Assembly (NCBI GenBank): GCA_963751075.1
Contig: CAVVTE010000011.1
Coordinates: 291,177 to 355,176 of the forward strand
DNA length: 64,000 nucleotides
Direction of reading: 5' to 3'
DNA from: an uncultured Chloroflexia bacterium
GTDB taxonomy: Bacteria; Chloroflexota; Chloroflexia; Thermomicrobiales; UBA6265
Position 1 is the first letter of the stretch. Every line of letters starts with the position of its first letter. The position numbers and the translations under genes were made by a program. The notes beneath the pieces were generated by a model. That model ran no database searches. It was not told the DNA's origin and was given only the letters and a program-made list of their open reading frames with translations. Positions 1,256 to 63,207 of the stretch are shown here, piece after piece.

Positions 1256-2200
1256 CTACGAGTAGCGTATGCGCGGATCGAGAACGGCATAGAGAATGTC
1301 CGCGATGACGTTGAAGAGCACGACAAGGACGGCGATGCCAAAGGTGATCGCCATGACGACAGGGACATCCTTGCTGTAGATGCCGTCGATGAGCGCGCGA
1401 CCGATACCCGGAATGCGAAAGATCTGCTCGGTGATGATCGCGCCACCGAAAATCTCCGGCACTTGCAGCGCGAGCACGGTCACCACTGGAATCAATGCAT
1501 TGCGCATCGCGTGCAGGACGACCACCGACTGCTCCCGTAGGCCCTTCGCTCGGGCCGTGCGGACGTAATCCTGGCTAATCGTCTCCAGCATCGACGCGCG
1601 GACAAAACGCATGAGCTGCGCCGCGCCGGCAAGACCAAGCACCATGATCGGCATGATGGACTGTTTCACATTCGGCAAGAAACCACTGACCTCGGAGTCG
1701 TAGACAAATGGCAACCAACCAAGAGAGACACTGAAAATGAGAATTAACAGAATGCCTGAGAAGAACGTAGGAATGCTGAAGCCCAGAAAGGCGAACGTCG
1801 TCGCGACCTGGTCGAAGAGCGAATATTGCTTGATCGCGGATAACACACCGATTGGCACCGCTACGAGGATGCTAAGTAACAACGCCGAACCGGAGATTGC
1901 GAGCGTGGTGGGCAGTCGAGACAGGACATAATCGCGGACCGGAATCTTGGCGGAATAGGACTGCAGCCAATCTCCTTGCACGTACGCTGATGCCCAGCGC
2001 AAATACTGGACGTGGATCGGATCGTCGAGTCCCATCGTCTCGCGGATACGTGCGCGCAACTCGGGCGGAACATTGGGGTTGTTGGCGAAACCAGACAGCG
2101 GATCGCCGGGCGCCAGCGCAAGGATGGCATACACAACCATGCTGATAGCGATGAGCGTGAAAATCGAGATGATCGTGCGGCGAATCAGGTAACGTCCCAA
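1256..2200 (-). CDS. ABC transporter permease, peptide/nickel family (DppB/OppB-type)
   Basis: 314-aa ORF with LAPGDPL near the N-terminus, YVRTARAKGL loop and C-terminal LYAVLDPRIRY. TTG start with GGAGGA 6 nt upstream. Confidence 0.9.
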   Translation of the reverse strand: MGRYLIRRTIISIFTLIAISMVVYAILALAPGDPLSGFANNPNVPPELRARIRETMGLDDPIHVQYLRWASAYVQGDWLQSYSAKIPVRDYVLSRLPTTLAISGSALLLSILVAVPIGVLSAIKQYSLFDQVATTFAFLGFSIPTFFSGILLILIFSVSLGWLPFVYDSEVSGFLPNVKQSIMPIMVLGLAGAAQLMRFVRASMLETISQDYVRTARAKGLREQSVVVLHAMRNALIPVVTVLALQVPEIFGGAIITEQIFRIPGIGRALIDGIYSKDVPVVMAITFGIAVLVVLFNVIADILYAVLDPRIRYS

Positions 2201-2446
2201 CCCGCGTCCTCCATGTCAGCCGTTTCGAGTTTGGACACTCCAGCGATTGCCGGTATTGGTCGGTACTGTCAGCAATGAGTCGGCGCTCCCCGGCTGATGC
2301 GTCGGAGCGCCGGGGCGCGTCACTCGTCAGGAAGATTCGGCTGATGGTACGGCCCGCATTTAGGAGCGTCAAGCAATAGTCTTCGCATACACGGCGAATG
2401 GGCGTCAACGGTCGACTGCGTTCTGTGGTAGGATGCGGGGTCGCGT

Positions 2447-3232: not shown

Positions 3233-3447
3233 GGACCCCGTCACCAGTCTTTCTGTGGTCGACCGGCAAGGTGATATCCGGGCCCTGAGCCGAGGTCAGG
3301 CGTCAGGCAGAGGTCGCTGGCCCCACGGTGCTCTCAGGAGTGCTACAAGTCTGTCGCATGGGACCCCGACGCCGGCCTCCTGGATGACGGCTTGTCACAG
3401 ACAGCGTGTTGTCACCCATCAATTTCAGATCACCTTTACCTTGGACT

Positions 3448-4067
3448 CTACGCCAGAGCGGCACACAACCCGGCAAGATCCCCATCAAGAGCCTCGTGCG
3501 GTCCGGCCTGGAACGTCACCAGGTTGCCCGCTTGATTCGTCACGATCCGCCCGATATCAAGGAAAACGGCGCCAGCGCCAGGGACGGTGACCTTGAAGAT
3601 GATTCCCATGTTCGCCCCGAGTCTCGTCTGGGGATCGATGAGCACGGTGTTGTGATATGGGGCCGCGATTTCTTTGCCGTGACCGAGTTGATAAAGACTT
3701 CGGTTCCCCGCACGGTTTCGACACCTTTGACCCGCGTGCCGACTTTGTCGGTGAACCATTTGATCGTGAAGTCCAACTCACCCTTGGTCAGTATCGTGAA
3801 TGAGTCGCAATCCCAAAATGGCTCCTCGGGGAAACTGAGGTGGTCGCTTTCGAACAGCGGTTTCCCCTACGCCTGAAGGCGAGCGCCTCTCCGCCGTCTT
3901 GCCCGGTGCATGTCGCGGCGCTTGCCACTGCTCTTGGCGTTGCTCGTGGCGGCAGTGCTGAACGAATTGCCCAGGAGTGTGATTTCGAGCAGCGTCCCAA
4001 TTGCGGCGCGACGCGTCCCCGACGTACCAAAGTCCTGACCGAGACGATCGAGGATGTCGGGGGCCAT
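3448..4067 (-). pseudogene. Frameshifted remnant of a gene of unknown function
   Basis: Protein-like segments fall in different minus frames and are interrupted by stops: 3867..4067, 3540..3776 (DFTIKWFTDKVGTRVKGVETVRGTEVF) and 3448..3759 (GKEIAAPYHNTVLIDPQTRLGANMGIIFKVTVPG). Local GC is lower than in the flanks. Confidence 0.3.
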
Positions 4068-5074: not shown

Positions 5075-5839
5075 TTACGGACGATTCCTGTTATGCCGGG
5101 TTTCCGTCGATCGTCGCCCTCCCTTCTCTGACAAACGCACATCGACTCGTCCCACGCCGGCTCCCCGCGGATCCCACTTCGCGCGGAAGAGCGCAACCGC
5201 GGCCGGAATCTGACTCCCGAACCTTCCCGACCCGATCGGCAACTCAGGCTCGTTCGCCATGTGGTGGGCGGTGAGACCATGGATCATCCCGATAAGTAGA
5301 TCGCGCGCTTGCGCTACTGGCACGTCGAGCACGACCTCGCCTGCGGCGACGGCGTCGCCGAGCATCTGCTCGAGCCCGGCCGGCGCCCGGAAGGCCTCCT
5401 CCAGGCTCTCCCTGGAGGGGGTGAAGCCCGGGACGGGGCGTTCATAGGCGAGTTGATAGAGGTCCGGGTTCTCCTGGGCGAATCGAAAGTAGCTCTCGAA
5501 GCGCCCCTCGAGCCGGTCCCAGAATCCCTCGCGACCCGCGTCGTCACGATCGCGGTACTCGGCACGCAGCCGAACCGCCGTCAAAAAAAGCGCGTCATAG
5601 AGCGCCATCTTGCTAGGGAAATAGGCATACAACGAGGGCGCTTGCATATGCACCCGACGGGCTACCTCACGGAGGCTGAGCGCCGCCACACCCTGTTCCC
5701 GCATCACGGCACGGGCGGCATCCAGAATTGCGAGGCGCATCTCCTCGCGATTGCGCTGCCGGCGTTCAGCCGGGGATGGAAACGAGGTCGACTGGGCATC
5801 CGGGCGCGTCGCACCCCGTTGGACGTGCTCCCTGCTCAC
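5075..5839 (-). CDS. TetR family transcriptional regulator
   Basis: 254 aa. HTH region ILDAARAVMREQGVAALSLREVARRVHMQAPSLYAYFPSK. Confidence 0.9.
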   Translation of the reverse strand: MSREHVQRGATRPDAQSTSFPSPAERRQRNREEMRLAILDAARAVMREQGVAALSLREVARRVHMQAPSLYAYFPSKMALYDALFLTAVRLRAEYRDRDDAGREGFWDRLEGRFESYFRFAQENPDLYQLAYERPVPGFTPSRESLEEAFRAPAGLEQMLGDAVAAGEVVLDVPVAQARDLLIGMIHGLTAHHMANEPELPIGSGRFGSQIPAAVALFRAKWDPRGAGVGRVDVRLSEKGGRRSTETRHNRNRP

Positions 5840-34493: not shown

Positions 34494-35721
34494 TCAGAGA
34501 GCCAACGCCGGCACACGGTCGTCTTCGCGCACGAAGCCCTCAGCTGGTGGTTGCGGGCAGCGTAGCGGTTTGTCCTGCCGATAGCCGAGCGCGTAGTCGG
34601 CCTGCAAGATCGTGTGGATCTCCCGCGTTCCCTCGTAGATCACCGCACCGCGTGAGTTTCGCCAGAAGCGCTCGACCGGGTACTCGTTGGAGTACCCGTA
34701 AGACCCGTGGATCTGGATCGCGTCATTTGCCGCTTCGAGGGCCGCGTCGCAGCCGTACCACTTCATCAACGACGTCTCGCGGGTATTACGGATGCCGCGG
34801 TTCTTCAGTTCGGCGGCCTGCATCGTCAGCAGGCGAGACGCCTCATATCCAGCGACCATCTTGGCAATCATCTGCTTGACCAGCTCGAAGCGACCGATCT
34901 CCTGTCCGAAGGCAAGGCGCTCGTTCGCATACTTGGTGCTGGCGTCGAGGCAGGCACGGATGAGACCAACCGCGCCCAGCGCCGACGGTGAAGCGACCCT
35001 GGTCGATACAGCTCATGGCGATCTTGAATCCTTCGCCCTCCTCGCCAATCCGGTTCTCGACCGGGACGCGCACGTTGTTGAACGCGAGCTCGCCGGTGTT
35101 GCCGGCCCGGACCCCCAGCTTGCCCTTGATCGTCCCGGTGGTGAGACCAGGCATGCCTCGCTCCAGCATGAAGGCGGTCAGTCCGTTGTGCTTCTTGCTG
35201 CGGTCGAACGACGCGAACACCAGGAAATGATCGGCAAAGTCGGCGAGGGAGATCCACATCTTCGCGCCATTGAGGACGTAGGCGTCGCCGTCCTGAGTGT
35301 AGGTAGACTCGATTGATCCCGCATCGGACCCCGCGTTCGGCTCGGTCAACGCGAAGGTGCCGAACTTTTCCCCTTGGGCCTGCGGCACCAGGAAGCGCTG
35401 CTTCTGCTCCTCGTTTGCCCACTGCAGAAGCGCGAGGCTATTGAGCCCGACATGAACGCTCATCACCACGCGCAGGAAGGTATCGACGTATTCGAGCTCC
35501 TCACAAGCGAGGGCGAGGGCGACGTAGTCGAAGCCAGAGCCGCCGTACTCCTCGGGAATGGGAAGGCCGAGGATGCCGAGCTCCCCCATGGTTCGTAGGG
35601 CCTCCGGGTGAAACTCACCCTTGGCGTCCCACTCCTGGATGTGCGGTGCGACCTCACGCGCCGCGAACTCGCGTACCGTGTCGCGAACCTGAATCTGCTC
35701 TGGAGTAAGTGAGAAGTCCAT
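34494..35721 (-). pseudogene. Acyl-CoA dehydrogenase, one frameshift
   Basis: N-terminal and middle domains are in the 35721 frame (FALTEPNAGSDAGS). After QGRFTV the sequence continues in another frame as ALGAVGLIRACLDASTKYANER ... YEGTREIH. The indel lies near 34980. Confidence 0.85.
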
Positions 35722-42009: not shown

Positions 42010-43156
42010 ATGAAGCGCAGCACGGAGCGAATGCTTACGACCCACACCGGTAGCTTGCCGCGCCCTCCCGACCTCCTCGCGGAACTACTGGGTCCGGGCG
42101 GGTCAATTTTCGAGACCGAAGTACGCGATCGGGTGCGGACGGCGGTGCGTGAGGTCGTTCAAAAACAGGTGGCGGCCGGGATCGACATCGTCAGCGACGG
42201 CGAGATCGGCAAACCCGGGTTCGCACACTACGTCAAGGATCGGCTGACCGGCTTTCAGGGTGCGGTCGCGCCCAGACCGTTTGCTCCGCGAGACTTGCTC
42301 GACTTCCCCGAAGTCGCGCGGCATCTCTTCGTGTCTGATGGGAAAGAGCTCCCGCGGCCCCCGATGCCGACCAACGACGGCCCCATCGCCTACGACGGTC
42401 GCGAACAACTTGTGATGGATCTGGACAATTTCTCGGCTGCGATCGAAGGCTTGCCCATGCGAAGGCTTCCTTCCCGCTGTATCTCCAGGCTGCGTCGCCA
42501 TGCTCATGGGCACCACCTATTACCCCAGCCGCCGGGACTTCCTGTTTGCGCTGGCGGATGCGCTGCGCGAGGAGTACCAGGCGATCGTCGACCGCGGCTT
42601 CGTCCTGCAGATCGACTGCCCGGATCTTGCCCTGGGCTACCACCTGGAGTTCGTAGATCGGCCCATCTCGGAGTTTCGAGCCGTCATTGAGCTCCATGTC
42701 GAGGTCCTGAACCACGCGCTAGCCGGAATAGATCCCGATTGGATCCGGGTCCACGTCTGTTGGGGCAACTACCCTGGCCCGCACCACCACGATATAGCCC
42801 TGGCCGACATTCTCGACATCATCTACAACGTAAATGCAACCGGTCTTTCGATCGAGGGCGCAAACCCCCGCCATGAGCACGAGTGGGCGGTGTTTGAGCA
42901 ACTTCCGTTGCCCGCTGGCAAGATCTTGATCCCGGGCGTGATTGATACCTGTACCAACTGCATCGAGCACCCGGAGACGGTCGCGCAGCGGATCGAGCGG
43001 TACGCGCGGGTCGTCGGTCGCGAGCAGGTGATCGCCGGTACCGACTGCGGATTCGCGACCATCGCCGGGAGATCAGCCGTCGCGCCTGACGTCGCCTACG
43101 CCAAGCTGGCCAGCCTCGCGGAAGGTGCGCGGCTGGCCAGTGCCAGGCTTTGGTAA
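42010..43156 (+). pseudogene. Cobalamin-independent methionine synthase-like (MetE C-terminal family), one frameshift
   Basis: THTGSLPRP ... DIVSDGEIGK in the first frame. After AAIEGLP the sequence continues as EGFLPAVSPGCVAMLM ... HVCWGNY ... GTDCGF in the +1 frame, shifting near 42460. Confidence 0.8.
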
Positions 43157-48225: not shown

Positions 48226-48248
48226 TCCGTTCGCGCCCCTCGTTCCGG

Positions 48249-48280
48249 GCCCCGGGAGCCGAGGCCTCGGCTCCCGGGGC
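48249..48280. repeat. Perfect 32-bp GC-rich palindrome
   Basis: gccccgggagccgagg/cctcggctcccggggc, about 25 nt upstream of the ATPase ORF start at 48225 (minus strand). Confidence 0.6.
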
Positions 48281-48337
48281 TCGGTCGGTCTTCTTGAACT
48301 CTGAGGGCCGCCATGAAAGCACAGTCGGCTTCAGGAC

Positions 48338-48425
48338 GCAACCGGCAGCACTAGCGACAACGCTCGCCCAACCGCAGCACCCACGGCTGCGCTTACCCAA
48401 CCAGAGCACTCACGACTCCGCTCAC
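48338..48425. repeat. Three degenerate tandem repeats of about 29 bp
   Basis: Units 48338-48367, 48368-48396 and 48397-48425 share CCAACC(G/A).AGCAC..ACG.CT.CGCT.AC. Units 2 and 3 match at about 23 of 29 positions by eye. Confidence 0.5.
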
Positions 48426-48646
48426 CCGACCACCCTCGTCTTCAAATGATCCCCTCGGACTCATCACCGATCGGGCAGCACGAGCCCGTCGCGGCTCGAC
48501 GCGCCGCAGCGCAACGAGGCATCCAGGTGGAGAACGGCGTCACGATTCGGCAGCTCCTCGAGGGATAACGCGCCGGTCGTCTGTCACGGCGTGATCTCCT
48601 GATCCAGGTCCGTTCCCCTGAAATCACAAAATCCTCTTTCAAAATA

Positions 48647-48660
48647 AGAACATATGTTCT
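48647..48660 (+). promoter_or_regulatory. LexA (SOS) box of the GAAC-N4-GTTC type overlapping a -10-like hexamer
   Basis: AGAACATATGTTCT is a perfect palindrome in a locally AT-rich stretch. TATTAT at 48660-48665. The RepA-like ORF starts about 95 nt downstream. Confidence 0.55.
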
Positions 48661-48759
48661 ATTATGGATGCTCTTGTTGGCCGATCAAGCGCTAATGCGG
48701 CTTTCGGCGCGTGATCTCACACGAATGCGCGACCACCGGGATCGCCTGGAGGGGACAGG

Positions 48760-50202
48760 ATGATGGCTGCAGACGGCGCGGACAACGAGCCGGACCAGGT
48801 GCCGGACGCCTTCTTGGAGGCCGTGCGCCCGGAGCACCGCGCGGACCTGCGCGCCCTCGTGCAAACCGCGCAAGAGCCGCCGCCGAACAATGCGGCGTCC
48901 GATCGGCGCGCCGACCGGACCCCGGATGACGACTCCGGCGCTGGCGAAGGTAGCCCGCGCTCCCCCAGGTCGACCCGCGAACCGTTCCCTGCCCTCAACC
49001 CGGCCCAGTCGGCGCGCGTCACCAACGCGTTGATCGTCGCCGCTGAACGATTGGCGGGAGTCCCCATCGCTCACAGCCTCATCCAGTCCCCGGACGCACC
49101 GTCCCGGACTACGGAGCTGCCGGGCACGACCGGCATGACCGGCCGTCAGTCGCTGGGAAACGCCGTCCGCCTCAGTGACGTCACCCCGGAGCGAATCCGC
49201 TGGCTCTGGCCGGGTCGTGTCCCCGCCGGTAAGATCACCGTCCTCGATGGCGATCCCGGTCTCGGCAAGAGCACGCTTCTCTGCGAGGTCGCCGCCCGCA
49301 TCACTCGTGGCGACCCCCTCCCCGGCGGCGAACCGGCTGCCCCCCGGGGCGTCCTCCTCTTGTCTGCCGAGGACGACCTCTCGACACCATCCGCCCTCGC
49401 ATCGATGCCGCCGGCGGCGATCCCGACCGCATCGGCACCCTCCTCGCCATTCCGGATCGCACCGAAACCGGACGGCCCTTCTCCATCCCTGGCGACCTCC
49501 CCATTCTCGATGCCGTCGTTGAACGGCTCGATGCTGCCCTCGTCATCGTCGACCCGCTCGTCGCCTATCTGCGCCCCGGCATCAGCGCCAATCGGGACCA
49601 GGATGTCCGCCGGGCCTTGGCCGCCCTCAAGGCCTCGGCTCGAGCGCACCGGCGCCGCCATCGTCGTCGTTCGCCATCTCAACAAGTCGGCGCAGACGAA
49701 CCCGCTCTATCGCGGCCTCGGCAGCATCGGTATCATCGGCGCCGCCCGCTGTGCCCTGCTCCTGGCCGCCGATCCCGACGATGCCGACCGCCGCATCCTT
49801 GCCGTCAGCAAAGGCAATCTCGCTCGTCCTCCCGCCGCCCTCGCCTTCCGCCTGGATGATGTTCCCGGCACCGATGTCGCGCGTATCGTCTGGGAAGGAG
49901 AGAGTCCCTGGACGGCTGGCGAGCTCCTCGGCCGCCTGCCGGCCGAGGAGGGTGATGAGTCGCGCTCCGCCGTCGATGACGCCCGTGCCTGGCTGCGCGA
50001 AGCCCTGGCGGCCGGACCGCGTCCCGCGAGTGAGCTGCGCCGGGAATCCGCCGCCCGCGGGATTGGCCTGTCCACCCTCTATGCGGCGCGCAAGGCCGAG
50101 GGCATCGCGACCGCGAAGGAGCACATCGCTAGGGGCCGCTGGCTGTGGATGCTCCAGGACAACTCAGGTGGACGTGAAGATGCGGTCCCTTCCGGCTCGT
50201 GA
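48760..50202 (+). pseudogene. RecA-fold AAA ATPase (RepA / AAA_25-like, mobile-element type) with two compensating frameshifts
   Basis: GGAGGGG-N5-ATG. ERIRWLWPGRVPAGKITVLDGDPGLGKSTL, with Walker A. Between about 49382 and 49641 the conserved sequence (DTIRPRIDAAGGDPDRIG ... LVIVDPLVAYL ... DVRRALAALKA) is in the +1 frame, then returns to ERTGAAIVVVRHLNKS. Confidence 0.75.
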
Positions 50203-50205
50203 GAT

Positions 50206-50232
50206 GTTCAACACCTTCAACATCTTCAACAC
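50206..50232 (+). repeat. Three tandem 9-bp iteron-like repeats
   Basis: GTTCAACAC CTTCAACAT CTTCAACAC, starting 4 nt after the ATPase stop. Confidence 0.6.
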
Positions 50233-50452
50233 ATTTGATCCCAACCAGCACCGCTGCGTGAACCGGTAATCCGCCACACCCAGCTGACATCGTGCCGTGA
50301 CAGACTCCTTCGCCGGAACTCCGTGGGACTGACTCCGGAGCGGAGCGAACGCACTTTCACAGGCAGCCCCGCGAAAGCGCTATTGGCGATACACTACAGA
50401 CGCCCTCGGCGCGATGTGACGCGGCCCATCTACTCTGGAGCGACGACTGCTT

Positions 50453-50731
50453 ATGGACGGCTCCTGGTTCAGTTGGCTGTCTCGTGCTCTTTCGAAGTTG
50501 TCCACCCGTCGAATGCTCTTAATACTAGTTGGCGCGGTTGCCGCTGGCCTCGGTCAGCGCGGTGTCTTCGGCACCCAGCTTGGGCCGGCGACCTGTGGAA
50601 GTGAGGGCGAAGCCTGCATCCTGGCGCATGGCTGTTGCAGTGGGTTCACCTGCGCGACCTCAGGTCTAACACCAACTATGGCGTTTGCGTTACTGGATCG
50701 GGCGGGATGCTGCCGGCGTCATCGTCCCTGA
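50453..50731 (+). CDS. TAT-signal cysteine-rich small secreted protein (hypothetical; frame uncertain at the 3' end)
   Basis: STRRMLLILVGAVAAGLG twin-arginine signal, then TCGSEGEACILAHGCCSGFTCA (C-x6-C-x5-CC-x4-C). Moderate SD, GGAG 12 nt upstream. Confidence 0.4.
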   Translation: MDGSWFSWLSRALSKLSTRRMLLILVGAVAAGLGQRGVFGTQLGPATCGSEGEACILAHGCCSGFTCATSGLTPTMAFALLDRAGCCRRHRP

Positions 50732-51097
50732 TCTCCCCCCATAGCAAGACTATCAATGAAGACGTCGTTAGCCTTGCGGAATCGGTTGCCACCATTGAGT
50801 CCGCTGCCTCCGGAACAGACCTGGCGGCCGAAAGCGACGCCCGCATCGCCGCGGCCGGGACCGCAAGGACAAAAGCGCGACCAGGCGGAAGTCACGCCGG
50901 GACAACAAGCGGACCACCCGCCGGACGCGTAACGACGACCAACCGAATCGCCGAGCTGAGGCTACGAAGACACCAACCCCTACTCGGACGCCGAACCCAA
51001 CCCGGACACTCCGACCCGAACCCGCCCAACCCGGACTCCCACTCCTACGCGGACCCCGACCCCGACCCCAACGAGCACGCCGGACCCTGCGGAAGGT

Positions 51098-51537: not shown

Positions 51538-52027
51538 GTGGGCGCCGATCTTGCCCGCCGTGGTCTCCGCACGGCCATTGTTCTGCCTGTGGCCTTGGTC
51601 GCCGTCTTCTACGGCCTTCGCCTCGCTCCAAGGGACCCGACAGGCGGCGTGCTCAGCCCGACTGTGCTGGAGGAGGTGCGCGCGGAGTACCGCGAGCGTC
51701 TTGGTCTCAATGAGCAGATCCTGGTCCAATACGGCGTGTACGTGAAAAATCTCGCCTGAGGAGACCTGGGCACGACACTCATTACCGGCAAGTCGATCGG
51801 CAAGTAGCTTGGATTCTATGGCTGCAACAGCCTGGTGCTCGGTCTCGCCGCGACCATCCTTATCTCCCCTTCCGAGCCTCGGGGTGATGATCGCCGAGGG
51901 GAGGAACTACATGCTGCAAAGCCACTGGGTGACCACCGTCCCGGGCGTTGCTATCGTGGCCGTCGTCCTGGGTTTGAACCTCCTCGGCGATGGGTTGCGC
52001 GACGTGCTCGATCCGAGACTGAAGTAG
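51538..52027 (+). pseudogene. Chimeric remnant of peptide ABC permease genes (DppB N-terminus fused to DppC C-terminus)
   Basis: N-terminus ...LRLAPRDPTGG...GLNEQILVQYGVYVKNLA, in-frame TGA, then GDLGTTL. A second stop follows, then the C-terminal GVMIAEGRNYML...LNLLGDGLRDVLDPRLK. More than 1 kb of the expected sequence is missing. Confidence 0.75.
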
Positions 52028-55580: not shown

Positions 55581-56808
55581 TTGACATCACCTGATTCAAG
55601 CGCGGAGATGAAGGGGCCCGCGGGCCTCGGGTTCTCCAGCCGCGCTGTCCACGTGGGAGAGCGTGGGCCGCGCCCCGACTTTACTCCAACCACCACACCG
55701 ATCTACCCCGCCACCGCCTTTGTCTACGACGACACCGATACACTCGACGCGGTATTCGGGAACGAGCGTCAAGGTTACGTATACACTCGCTATGCCAACC
55801 CGACTACGAGCGCGCTGGAAGCGGCGATCGCATCGCTCGAAGGTACGGAGGACGCCGTGGCGTTTGCGTCCGGAATGGGCGCCGTATATGCCGCAATGCT
55901 CCTCGACGCGCGCGCCGGGCAGTGCATCGTGGCCGCGCCTGATGTCTACGGCGCTACCTACGCCATTCTCCACCGGCTCCTGCCCACGCTTGGCATCGAG
56001 ACCACCTTTGTCGACCTCCGCGATCTCCAGCAGCTCGAGCGGGTGGTGGAGACCTCCCGCCCGGCGCTGATCTATGCCGAGACGATTTCGAATCCACTGC
56101 TGCGCGTCGCCGATCTCCGCGAGGTCACGACTCTCGCTCATCGCCATGGCGCTCGGGTCGCGGTCGATAACACCTTCGCCACACCCTGGTTGGTCAACCC
56201 CGCCGCGCTCGGCGTGGATTCCGTTATCCACTCGACCACCAAGTACCTTGGGGGACACGGCGACGTCACCGGTGGTGTGATTGCCACCACCGCCGAGCGC
56301 GGAGCGGAGCTGCGCGAGATCAACAAGCTGATTGGATCGGTCGCCGGTCCGTTCGAGTCATGGTTGACGCTGCGCGGATTGAAAACTCTTCCCCTGCGAA
56401 TGAAGCAGCAGAGCGATAACGCGCGTGCCGTGGCCGACTGGCTCGTCGGCGACTCCCGGGTCTCGCGGGTCAATTACCCCGGCCTGCAGCATCTCGGCGG
56501 CGCCGGAGGCGATGTTCAACCGGCCTGAGCGCGGTGGGATGATCTCGTTCGAGGTTCGCGACGCCGCACGGGACGACATTTTCCGCTTCTTCGAGGCGCT
56601 CACGCTCATCGTGCCGGCCACGACGCTCGGGGATGTCTACAGTCTCGTGCTCTATCCGACGATCTCCTCTCATCGGGCTGTGCCCGCGGAAGAGCGGGCG
56701 AAAATCGGAATCTCGGACGGGCTCGTGCGTTTGTCGGTCGGAATCGAGGATGTCGAAGACATCATCGCCGACCTGGACCGAGCATTGGCCGCGGCAGACC
56801 GGGGCTAG
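55581..56808 (+). pseudogene. PLP-dependent Cys/Met metabolism enzyme (cystathionine gamma-synthase / O-acylhomoserine sulfhydrylase-like), one frameshift
   Basis: YTRYANPT ... DNTFATP ... HSTTKYLGGHGD in frame 1 to VNYPGLQH. It then reads PEAMFNRPERGGMISFEV ... SLGDV.. ... RLSVGIEDVEDIIADL in another frame, shifting near 56495. Confidence 0.85.
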
Positions 56809-56838: not shown

Positions 56839-58033
56839 ATGGCAATCGCAATGGCAACGGATGCGAAAGTCGATACCTTGCGGGCACAGTTGCCCGCGGT
56901 GCAGACCACCGGCTATTTCAATGCCGGTTCCAATGGCCCGATTCCGAGAATCTCCTACGAAGCTGCCGACATGACCGCCCGCGCGCGAGCTCGAGCAGGG
57001 ACGGATCATTCCCGGGACATTTCGCGACAACCGCGAACGCAACCGGGGTGTAGCCGCACTGGCCGCCGGAATATTCGGCGCCGATCCTGACGAGATAGCC
57101 CTCACCCACAGCGCTACCGAAGGACTTTGCATGGCCCTCATGGGGCTAACGTGGGATCCGGGTGATGAAATCGTTACCACCCTGGAAGAGCATCCCGGGC
57201 TCCTGATGCCGCTCGCGCTCCTCGCTCGACGATTTGGCGTTGTTACCCGGTACGCTGATATTGGTGACGGCTCGTCGGGTGTAGTCGAGGCTCTGGCGAG
57301 TCAGATCACCTCTCGCACGCGTCTCATCGCTCTGTCGCACGTTCTCTGGTCGACGGGCGCCGTGCTTCCGCTGCGCGACATCAGCGAGCTTGCCCGGCGC
57401 CATGAGCTCATGGTCGTGGTGGATGGAGCGCAATCCGCCGGCCAGGTGCCAGTGGATCTCCACGCGTTGGGCATTGATGCCTATGCGATGGCCGGCCAGA
57501 AATGGCTCTGCGGGCCGGAAGGGACCGGCCTGCTCTATATCCGCCGGGATCGATTTGCCGATATCGCACCGACCTACGCCCGCTACGGACAGTTCGAGCC
57601 GAGTGGCTACTTCATCCCCGCGAAGGGCGCAATGCGGTACGAGATCGGCGAGTTCTACCCTCCGGCGGTGGCCTCCCAGGAGGCAACGCTGCGCTGGCTG
57701 CGCGACGATGTCGGGTTCCAATGGGCGTACGATCGCATCGCTGGCCTGGGCGCCGACTTCCGTCGCCGGCTGACGGACATAGACGGAGTGACCGTGGTTA
57801 CCCCGAGCGAACCAATGGCGGGGTTGGTGAACTTCAATATCGCGGGTCTGCCTCCACAGGAGGTGGAGACCCGGCTCTTCGAGCGCGGCTACACCATTCG
57901 CTATGTGGAATCAGTGCCCTGCACGGTTTCGGCTCGAGCATCGCTGGGATGGTGGAACACCGAAGATGAGGTGGCGGGTCTCGCGGATGCGGTGGCGGAT
58001 CTCGCACGGGAAGCGCGTGTGCTGAGTGGGTGA
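56839..58033 (+). pseudogene. Class V aminotransferase / cysteine-desulfurase-like, one frameshift
   Basis: N-terminus TGYFNAGSNGPIPRISYEAADMT, then a frame change near 56980 into ARELEQGRIIPGTFRDN ... LTHSATEGL ... VDGAQSAGQVPVD ... AMAGQKWLCGPEGTG. Confidence 0.85.
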
Positions 58034-61795: not shown

Positions 61796-62545
61796 ATGAT
61801 CGATCTGCCGCCGTTGAGCATTGATTCCTCGCGGTCCGAGCGGGTGTATCTCCGGCTGAAGGAGGCCATCACATCGGTGTCCCTTCGGCCTGGCTCCTCC
61901 CTCGGTGAGGCCGAAGTCGCCCGCCAACTGGGCGTGAGCACAACACCAGTGCGAGAAGCGTTGCAACGCCTCGGGCAGGATGGCCTGGGCGTCCTGAGCC
62001 GGTACCGTGGGGCGACGGTCGCCTAGATTACGGAAACGGATGTCCGGGAAATCTATGAGCTGCGAGATGCGTTCGAACCGATGGCCGCCACCTTGGCCGT
62101 GCCCGTGCTGATCGAGGAGGACATCGCGGAGATGGGCAGCGCCATCGCGCACGCCTCGTCGGCAATTACACGGGGCGAGTGGCGGGAGCTCAGCCATTGG
62201 AACCGGACCTTCCATGGCACCCTGATTCGCCGATGCCAGAACCGCCGTCTCCGGCGAGTATTGGAAACCCTGCAGGATCAAAACCGAATCATCGCCCTCC
62301 TGACATGGGAAGGACGCGGATACGATGAACAGGAGCATGACGAGCACACGATGATCCTGGAGGCCGCATCCCGGCGAGAGCCCGATCTCGCCGCCGAACA
62401 TTTGCGGCACCACATCGCCCGGTTTGGTCGTGACGTTGTGCGGATGTGGGAGCAGCGTTCCACCCATGGCGGACAGGAATCGCCGGGGAGTGCAACGCAA
62501 GTCGGGATGATGACGCTCTCAGAAAGAGAGGGCATTCGAGGATGA
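61796..62545 (+). pseudogene. GntR family regulator (FadR/FCD type) with an in-frame TAG
   Basis: HTH part ERVYLRLKEAI...GEAEVARQLGVSTTPVREALQRL ends at TAG 62024-62026. The FCD domain (ITETDVREIYELRDAFEP ... HDEHTMILEA) continues in the same frame. Confidence 0.8.
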
Positions 62546-63207
62546 GGAGCCGCGTGCCCGGGCGGTGGACCGATCTGGCTCAGGCATTCCGCGGCGTCAC
62601 TGTGACCACGGTTAGCCCCTTCGTTCCGGGTACGCTCGATCTCGACATCGCTGGCTTCGACGCGAATCTCCGGTTTCTGCGGGACTGTGGAGTGTTGGTC
62701 GTCGTCCCTGCCGGGAATACCGGCGAGGTCACGAGTCTGACTACCGACGAGATTGGCGTAATTGCCGAGCGAGCCGTCGCAACCGTCGGATCCCATGCCG
62801 CCGTGGTGCTCGGGGTTGATGGTGACGTGAGAACGACTACGCGCTGCTGTCCATGCCCAGCAAGCGGGCACGGACGGGATCATGATCCAAGACAAGAACC
62901 ACCCCACCCGTTCATGTCCGGCGACGGACTCGTCGCGTATTTGGAGGACTTACGCGCGGCGGTCAGGCCGGCGTTCAATGTCTCCGTCATCAAGCACGCT
63001 ATGGAACTGGTGGGACTTGCTGTTGGCCCGGTGCGTCCACCCCTTTCACCGGTTGACACAGCGACCGCAGCTGCGGTCGCGTCGATGATCCGCGCCTGGG
63101 AGGATGGGCTTGGGTGGTTCATGTCTGCTGGCGTAGCCGTCACTAGCGCACCACGATCCGTGCGCTCGATCCCACCGATAAGGGGAACGGAGGTCGATAT
63201 GGCGTGA
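62542..63207 (+). pseudogene. DapA/N-acetylneuraminate-lyase family remnant (frameshifted, internally shortened)
   Basis: N-terminus GVTVTTVSPF ... VVVPAGNTGEVTSLTTDE and C-terminus SVIKHAMELVGLAVGPVRPPLSP are recognisable. The middle (Lys active-site region) is missing or out of frame. ATGA overlap with the GntR stop. Confidence 0.6.

Follow-up and report, generated by a model that had tools for sequence, protein, structure and literature searches.

A conserved GAAC-N4-GTTC palindrome, a putative LexA operator, in the promoter of a RepA-like helicase gene from Thermomicrobiales-like Chloroflexota

A palindrome upstream of a RepA-like helicase gene

We analysed a stretch of 64,000 nucleotides (nt) from an uncultured Chloroflexia bacterium (contig CAVVTE010000011.1), called the window below, in which the gene of a RepA-like replicative ATPase is preceded by a palindromic box and followed by short tandem repeats. 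The box, AGAACATATGTTCT at 48647-48660, is a perfect 14-bp palindrome with a GAAC-N4-GTTC core, located exactly where the first-pass annotation of this DNA had reported it; we annotate it as a putative LexA operator of the Cheo type on the basis of motif searches and of its retention in related loci. GAAC-N4-GTTC occurs four times in the 64-kb window against 1.0 expected, and AGAACATATGTTCT is the only one of the four with an A/T spacer, the other three having G+C spacers and at least one of them falling within a coding region. When the whole window was searched for GAACWWWWGTTC with up to one mismatch, the site at 48647-48660 was the sole match, with 0.58 expected. A literature search for the exact 14-mer AGAACATATGTTCT found nothing.

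The box lies in DNA of lower G+C content (0.545 over 48500-48799) than that on either side (0.63-0.74), in agreement with the AT-rich patch, unique in the region, that had been described before. A promoter scan found TTCAAA-16 nt-TATTAT on the plus strand at 48638-48665, made up of a -35-like hexamer (TTCAAA, 48638-48643) and a -10-like hexamer (TATTAT, 48660-48665). The box fills the spacer of this sigma-70-like promoter and has its last base in common with the first T of the -10 hexamer, so that the overlap noted in the first-pass annotation amounts to one shared base. A Shine-Dalgarno sequence, GGAGG at 48748-48752 on the same strand, was found by direct reading and is conserved with the closest homologue locus (L107); it stands 7 nt 5' of an ATG at 48760, which is 99 nt from the box, close to the distance of about 95 nt given earlier for an open reading frame (ORF) with a good ribosome-binding site. 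The scan also returned TTGATC-16-CATAAT on the minus strand at 48661-48688, whose -10 abuts the box; this site is unconserved in the other loci and has nothing obvious downstream of it for about 430 nt.

The gene that starts at this ATG extends to 50202 on the plus strand and was identified as an AAA_25/RepA-like replicative ATPase gene, with a C-terminal winged-helix-like domain, from Pfam, homologue alignment and predicted fold. In the ORF as it stands the Pfam AAA_25 match (E 8e-18) is limited to residues 138-206, and the missing middle of the domain, including the Walker B-type segment VIVDPL, is located in another reading frame. Comparison with L107 by blastn (87% nucleotide identity), together with protein alignment, places two frameshifts here: a 1-nt deletion at 49379-49380 relative to the intact homologue (CCTCCTC to CCTCTC, -1) and a 1-nt insertion at 49640 (GGC-CGA to GGCTCGA, +1), which restores the frame. 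Between the two, about 88 residues are out of frame; the 480-codon ORF stays open and is on record, frameshifts included, as the called protein P0002. An intact homologue, P0001, is 85% identical to the window protein.

The frameshift-repaired protein has about 2,600 homologues at E <=1e-10, and in alignments of 23 and 40 homologues GDPGLGKST is invariant and DPL nearly so. The AlphaFold model of P0001 (mean predicted local distance difference test score, pLDDT, 73; core 80-95) has a RecA-like core and a confidently modelled C-terminal domain that is helical and winged-helix-like. Its best Foldseek matches are structures of RSF1010 RepA (1olo, 1g8y and 1nlf; E ~2e-8), followed by RadA, Rad51, KaiC and DnaB. 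In PHROG the gene matches families of phage DNA polymerases/primases and primases/helicases. Homologues occur on viral contigs and on Clostridia conjugative plasmids with relaxase and transposon genes. The Pfam, Foldseek and PHROG results thus support a RepA-like RecA-fold ATPase, and the phage families and the viral and plasmid relatives bear out the mobile-element type that had been ascribed to the gene. A search of a genome collection with the helicase returned only a 33%-identical homologue from Gemmataceae. A defence system was considered and set aside, PADLOC matches being marginal only.

Conservation of the box and divergence of the repeats

The close subfamily of this helicase, taken as every close member whose upstream DNA was obtained, comprises 13 loci: the window, L002-L005, L014, L083, L084, L107, L108 and L240-L242. 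Their proteins are 56-85% identical to that of the window, and the twelve other loci come from soil and desert metagenomes and metagenome-assembled genomes (MAGs). In all 13 the box is found in the helicase promoter at the same position, with 12 perfect cores and one single-mismatch core. Seven loci carry AGAACATATGTTCT, two carry AGAACAAATGTTCT, and AGAACATAAGTTCT, AGAACGTATGTTCT and CGAACGTATGTTCT are found once each; the sole core mismatch is that of AGAACATATGTCCT in L002. When the first ten loci were aligned on the box, each of its 14 positions held 1.3-2.0 bits, while the flanks held mostly 0-1 bit, and blastn aligns nothing but the box between the more distant subfamily loci. Further, in the 592 kb made up of the window and the loci included in that search, perfect sites with an all-A/T spacer are confined to the promoters of the subfamily, and only two sites with three A/T spacer bases lie elsewhere.

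The promoter elements around the box are also recognizable across the subfamily. In most loci a TTGnnn -35 (TTGCTA in L002, TTGCAA in L003, TTGACA in L083) lies 15-17 nt 5' of a -10-like hexamer, which in seven loci other than the window reads TATTAT, TATAAT, TATCAT, TATGAT or TATACT at the position equivalent to that of the window. In L004, L005, L014 and L242 a hexamer of the GATAYT type stands 1-3 nt farther downstream, and the best candidate for a -10 is inside the box in L083 and L084; L084 further differs in that the box heads a two-gene operon with the helicase gene last. In all subfamily loci the box occupies the promoter spacer or overlaps the -10. To judge from the alignments, the box is under strong selection, and it is almost certainly a real repressor site, a conserved operator.

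At the other end of the gene, Tandem Repeats Finder detected three 9-bp repeats on the plus strand of the window (TTCAACACC, TTCAACATC and TTCAACACA, at 50207-50233), which start 5 nt past the helicase stop codon and may be iterons or an origin. Arrays of the same 9-bp period, with 3-4 copies, are placed at the stop codon or a little past it in the window, L002 (4259-4294), L003 (1544-1570), L004 (2947-2984), L005 (1479-1507), L084 (3207-3245), L108 (about 3380-3425), L240 and L242 (just after 9101); in L107 the repeat of the window begins and then the contig ends. The unit itself differs between loci (TTCAACACC, AAACCCTTT, GTTTGCCAA, CGGGAAGTT and GAAGGGTGC), as expected of iterons at a replication origin. 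Among distant homologues, tandem arrays lie within 300 nt downstream in 23 of 87 loci, mostly with a 9-bp period and sometimes paired. The repeats look like iterons of a replication origin that the C-terminal domain of the helicase itself would bind.

Sites of the same kind were seen in other settings. The IMG/VR phage contig L206 (61% G+C) carries GATAATAGAACATATGTTCTATTATC at 4039-4064, a perfect 26-bp palindrome centred on the 14-mer AGAACATATGTTCT. Here AGAACATATGTTCT is followed by TATTAT; on one side of it is a leftward operon that encodes, among others, an HTH_3 protein, and on the other are the genes of the small and large terminase subunits. An AAA_25 gene is absent from this contig. 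L240 has two tandem copies of GGAACGCTAGTTC at 3319-3346, with perfect GAAC-N4-GTTC cores 16 nt apart, 4.7 kb 5' of its helicase gene. In the viral contig L087 (65% G+C), GCGAACACCTGTTCGC at 5791-5802 lies between TTGCCA and TACGAT, an SOS box in the style of Actinobacteria in a promoter-like setting, with a distant helicase homologue 4.2 kb away. Dyads enriched 5' of distant homologues, considered as alternative operators, turned out to be conserved coding sequence of the upstream primase-polymerase domain.

Candidate regulators of the helicase promoter

GAAC-N4-GTTC is the LexA core of Firmicutes and Actinobacteria (PMC3323433), and of the 14 central positions in the footprint of a Firmicutes lexA promoter, TACGAACATATGTTCGTA, 12 are the same in AGAACATATGTTCT (PMC2248561). 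In 10 of the 13 subfamily loci the spacer has the form RNRY (ATAT, GTAT or AAAT); the departures from RNRY are at base 3 of AAAT, on one strand, and at base 4 of ATAA. In a gel shift attributed to Fernandez de Henestrosa et al. 2002, the LexA of Dehalococcoides, a member of the Chloroflexi, reportedly bound GAAC-N4-GTTC. Set beside the known Cheo boxes (CGAACRNRYGTTYC in B. subtilis, TCGAAC-N4-GTTCGA in Actinobacteria and GAAC-N4-GTTC in Dehalococcoides), the box of the window has the same core, is palindromic and overlaps a promoter; its ATAT spacer fits RNRY, and its host phylum is one in which this core has been reported. It differs in facing a replication helicase and not a repair gene, and LexA binding at this site is predicted from sequence.

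The lineage of the host was examined with ribosomal protein L25 (2537-3181; Pfam). Its closest named relative is in a "Chloroflexi bacterium" MAG (90% identity), and further relatives are in "Thermomicrobiales bacterium" (74-80%) and "Chloroflexia bacterium" (74-76%) MAGs, in keeping with the Chloroflexi attribution made in the first-pass annotation. A Thermomicrobiales-like member of the Chloroflexota, taken together with the site reported for Dehalococcoides, fits a reading in which LexA binds the box.

The location of the box, in the spacer or over the -10, is a classic repressor position and so supports a repressor. No regulator gene travels with the module and its neighbours differ everywhere, which argues that the binding factor is encoded elsewhere and conserved, and the presence of the same 14-mer with TATTAT in L206, free of AAA_25, indicates that an unrelated element uses the same site. 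Together with the match to the LexA core, and with the evidence against the helicase as reader that is given below, these two observations make host LexA the best candidate. We consider it probable, with moderate confidence, that host LexA represses a small replication module consisting of the promoter with its box, the helicase gene and the repeats, and the box most likely ties the helicase to DNA damage.

From the anatomy and the conservation, which are the observed parts, we infer the steps by which such a module would work. It would combine the promoter and its box, the gene of a RepA-like ATPase of the hexameric-helicase type whose C-terminal domain would bind DNA, and, at the 3' end of that gene, iterons of 9 bp. 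A dimer of the candidate binder, the LexA of a Thermomicrobiales-like Chloroflexota host, would cover the spacer and the first -10 base when bound to AGAACATATGTTCT, excluding RNA polymerase. Upon DNA damage RecA would become active and LexA would cleave itself, allowing the promoter to fire and to give a transcript, predicted to start near 48672, whose leader would be some 90 nt long. The helicase, once made, would act at the adjacent iterons and initiate replication, either of the element or of the DNA around it.

Some results weigh against LexA. The box begins with A and ends with T in the window and in nearly all other loci, whereas the Bacillus and Actinobacteria consensus has C at the first position and C or G at the last; the extended consensus CGAACRNRYGTTYC, with its RNRY spacer and C at both ends, is of the B. 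subtilis type and may not be that of a Chloroflexi host. The box was not found at the distant homologues (primase-fused proteins of <=55% identity, viral contigs and Clostridia conjugative plasmids). Neither lexA nor a GAAC-N4-GTTC site with an A/T spacer was found in the first 400 kb of the 918-kb Thermomicrobium roseum megaplasmid, which means that this stretch gives no positive control for the motif in the order. Separately from these points, a search for LexA and RecA found neither in the window or in loci L001-L084, and among the later viral loci it gave only a LexA-like gene, on the low-G+C phage contig L135. When B. subtilis LexA was compared with plasmids by tblastn, T. roseum was not among the best 60 records.

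Some of this evidence would also suit another conserved trans-acting repressor, either an undescribed regulator of Thermomicrobiales hosts or one by which a helper phage would control the modules as its satellites. Conservation and promoter position point to a repressor and not to which one, the A...T flanks depart from the canonical LexA consensus, and the 400 kb of the T. roseum megaplasmid yielded no box-bearing SOS gene. Moreover, L002 has a divergent Xre-type helix-turn-helix gene (2068-2292, minus strand) about 450 nt 5' of its box, and L206, with the same box, encodes the HTH_3 protein mentioned above. However, tblastn with the Xre protein gave a single, weak match, in the distant locus L040, and none in the window or in the remaining loci that carry the box. 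As a rule, the operators of phage immunity vary from element to element and are present in multiple copies, whereas here one identical site is kept across proteins with as little as 56% identity. Nor are we aware of any other regulator that uses a GAAC-N4-GTTC site, which also counts against this explanation, and we regard a repressor other than LexA as possible but rather unlikely.

It could also be that the helicase reads the box, which would then be a site for repression of its own gene, like the inverted repeats in the rep promoters of iteron plasmids, or a component of the origin. Plasmids commonly autorepress their rep genes by way of palindromes in the promoter, the winged-helix-like domain is confidently modelled, and the box accompanies only this protein subfamily. 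But the adjacent iterons, which the box does not resemble, vary between loci while the box is invariant, a sign that the DNA-binding specificity of the module itself changes fast, and this argues against the helicase as the reader of the box; in addition, the box is missing from homologues that have this C-terminal domain, and L206 has it with no AAA_25 gene. Reading by the helicase is, in our opinion, improbable. That the palindrome is a functionless chance occurrence in an AT-rich intergenic patch can be practically dismissed: one site in one window, at 0.58 expected for GAACWWWWGTTC, would not be decisive alone, but its presence at one and the same place in the promoter of all 13 homologous loci, with diverged flanks, and the near confinement of A/T-spacer sites to subfamily promoters in the 592 kb (two sites with three A/T bases apart), are not what chance would give.

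If host LexA is the repressor, the closest functional parallels are in phages. In CTX-phi of Vibrio cholerae the rstA promoter is controlled by LexA, and GIL01 of Bacillus thuringiensis is controlled by LexA together with gp7. In both, host LexA acts in the promoter of mobile-element replication genes and damage switches replication on, as proposed here. These, however, are complete phages with regulators of their own (RstR, gp7), whereas here only the promoter, one gene and the repeat array are conserved, and both the phylum and the replication protein are different. LexA control of mobile-element replication genes being already known from these phages, what is unusual is the solitary unit of promoter, gene and repeats, and its occurrence in a phylum whose SOS control is almost unstudied.

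The protein has its best structural match in the RSF1010 RepA hexameric helicase (1g8y, 1olo, 1nlf; Foldseek E 2e-8, target-normalised TM-score ~0.5), with which it shares the RecA-fold core, the Walker A and B motifs and Pfam AAA_25. Sequence identity to RepA is only about 20%, the proteins described here add a variable N-terminal region and the C-terminal winged-helix-like domain, and the copies are chromosomal and not borne on an IncQ plasmid. A further likeness is to the alpha protein of phage P4 with its ori/crr iterons and to satellite and phage primase-helicases (PHROGs 906 and 10729), where a helicase with a C-terminal DNA-binding domain lies beside short repeats, the presumed origin; distant homologues of our protein are indeed fused to, or preceded by, a primase-polymerase domain. 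Unlike P4 alpha, the subfamily lacks a primase domain, and its repeats, of 9-bp period, start right at the stop codon. P4 is not known to us to be under control of the SOS type.

As far as we know, nothing has been shown experimentally of the SOS regulon or of mobile-element control in Thermomicrobiales. An operator conserved across 13 loci offers a concrete candidate sequence for LexA binding in this order, and it suggests that DNA damage may govern the replication of a small helicase-plus-iteron module, as it does that of CTX-phi or GIL01. If it is not a LexA site, the box points to an unknown conserved repressor. The module occurs by itself and in diverse chromosomal surroundings, which makes one ask what it replicates and by what means it moves. 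A bolder proposal, which we put forward as speculative and doubtful, is that the modules are self-contained, damage-triggered replication cassettes, each with an SOS-type operator and promoter, the gene of a RepA-like helicase that brings its own DNA-binding domain, and a private array of 9-bp iterons. They would be inserted singly among ordinary genes in the chromosomes of soil Thermomicrobiales, unaccompanied by an integrase or any further genes of an element. Active cassettes of this kind would cause local over-replication of the surrounding chromosome after DNA damage, and would be either a minimal satellite-type mobile element or a domesticated device for gene amplification; we know of neither having been described for Chloroflexota.

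Surroundings of the module and integrity of the genes

The window is otherwise ordinary chromosome, with ATP-binding cassette (ABC) transporters, an F420-type oxidoreductase, a thiolase and similar genes. Pfam annotation and the search for LexA and RecA found no SOS gene in it, and tRNA and Rfam scans of the window gave no match. Among the neighbours of the module in the window and the related loci there is no integrase or phage Pfam domain, no convincing direct repeat flanks the module, and no neighbour gene is common to the subfamily loci, where the neighbours vary from McrBC-type restriction genes to glycine-cleavage and ribosome-silencing genes. The integrative element of the first-pass annotation is thus left with no integrase, tRNA, att-like repeat or shared flanking gene, and in the usual sense of the term it is unsupported.

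The same annotation had called the element now degraded, and the two frameshifts of the helicase gene are indeed present in the sequence. At least two other genes of the window are frameshifted as well: an acyl-CoA dehydrogenase gene is split into 34494-34871 and 34843-35721, and that of a Cys/Met pyridoxal phosphate-dependent enzyme into 55581-56528 and 56425-56808. Several further ORFs of the window have partial Pfam matches (the regions listed are 56839-58033, 42500-43156 and 62446-63207). These split genes suggest an indel-rich (long-read) assembly or widespread pseudogenes, and the related contigs are named contig_N, the form used by long-read assemblers. Taken together, the other split genes and the contig names make assembly indels as likely as decay for the helicase frameshifts, so that degradation does not follow from them. 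With its frame lost across VIVDPL, the copy in the window is either non-functional or mis-assembled.

Some other copies look truly inactivated despite an intact box, and these are on short-read metagenome contigs. The helicase gene of L003 has in-frame TAG and TAA codons in place of conserved Gln and Trp codons (nt 929 and 1220), and that of L005 has TGA (nt 1158) where its closest relative, L004, has a Gly codon.

Cysteine-rich proteins adjoin the module in 3 of the 13 loci, namely the window (50453-50731), L083 (8959-9486 and 11563-13440) and L004 (771-1061, minus strand), and those of L083 and the window carry an N-terminal motif of the twin-arginine signal type (RFDxLxRxL...RR). Farther downstream in the window, a degenerate ACCCCG hexamer is repeated about 16 times at 50976-51069 within an ORF rich in Pro, Asp and Asn, and N- and C-terminal fragments that resemble Dpp/Opp permease genes by eye lie at 51538-52027; with these repeats and fragments, the DNA 3' of the module looks scrambled. 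On the other side, a 415-nt non-coding stretch 5' of the box contains 2.5 copies of a 29-bp unit, CGCTCACCCAACCACAGCACCCACGACTC, at 48361-48433, unconserved in the other loci. Finally, a near-perfect 40-bp hairpin (CCGGGCCCCGGGAGCCGAGG / CCTCGGCTCCCGGGGCTCGG, 48245-48284) is located just 5' of the start of a minus-strand sugar ABC-transporter operon.

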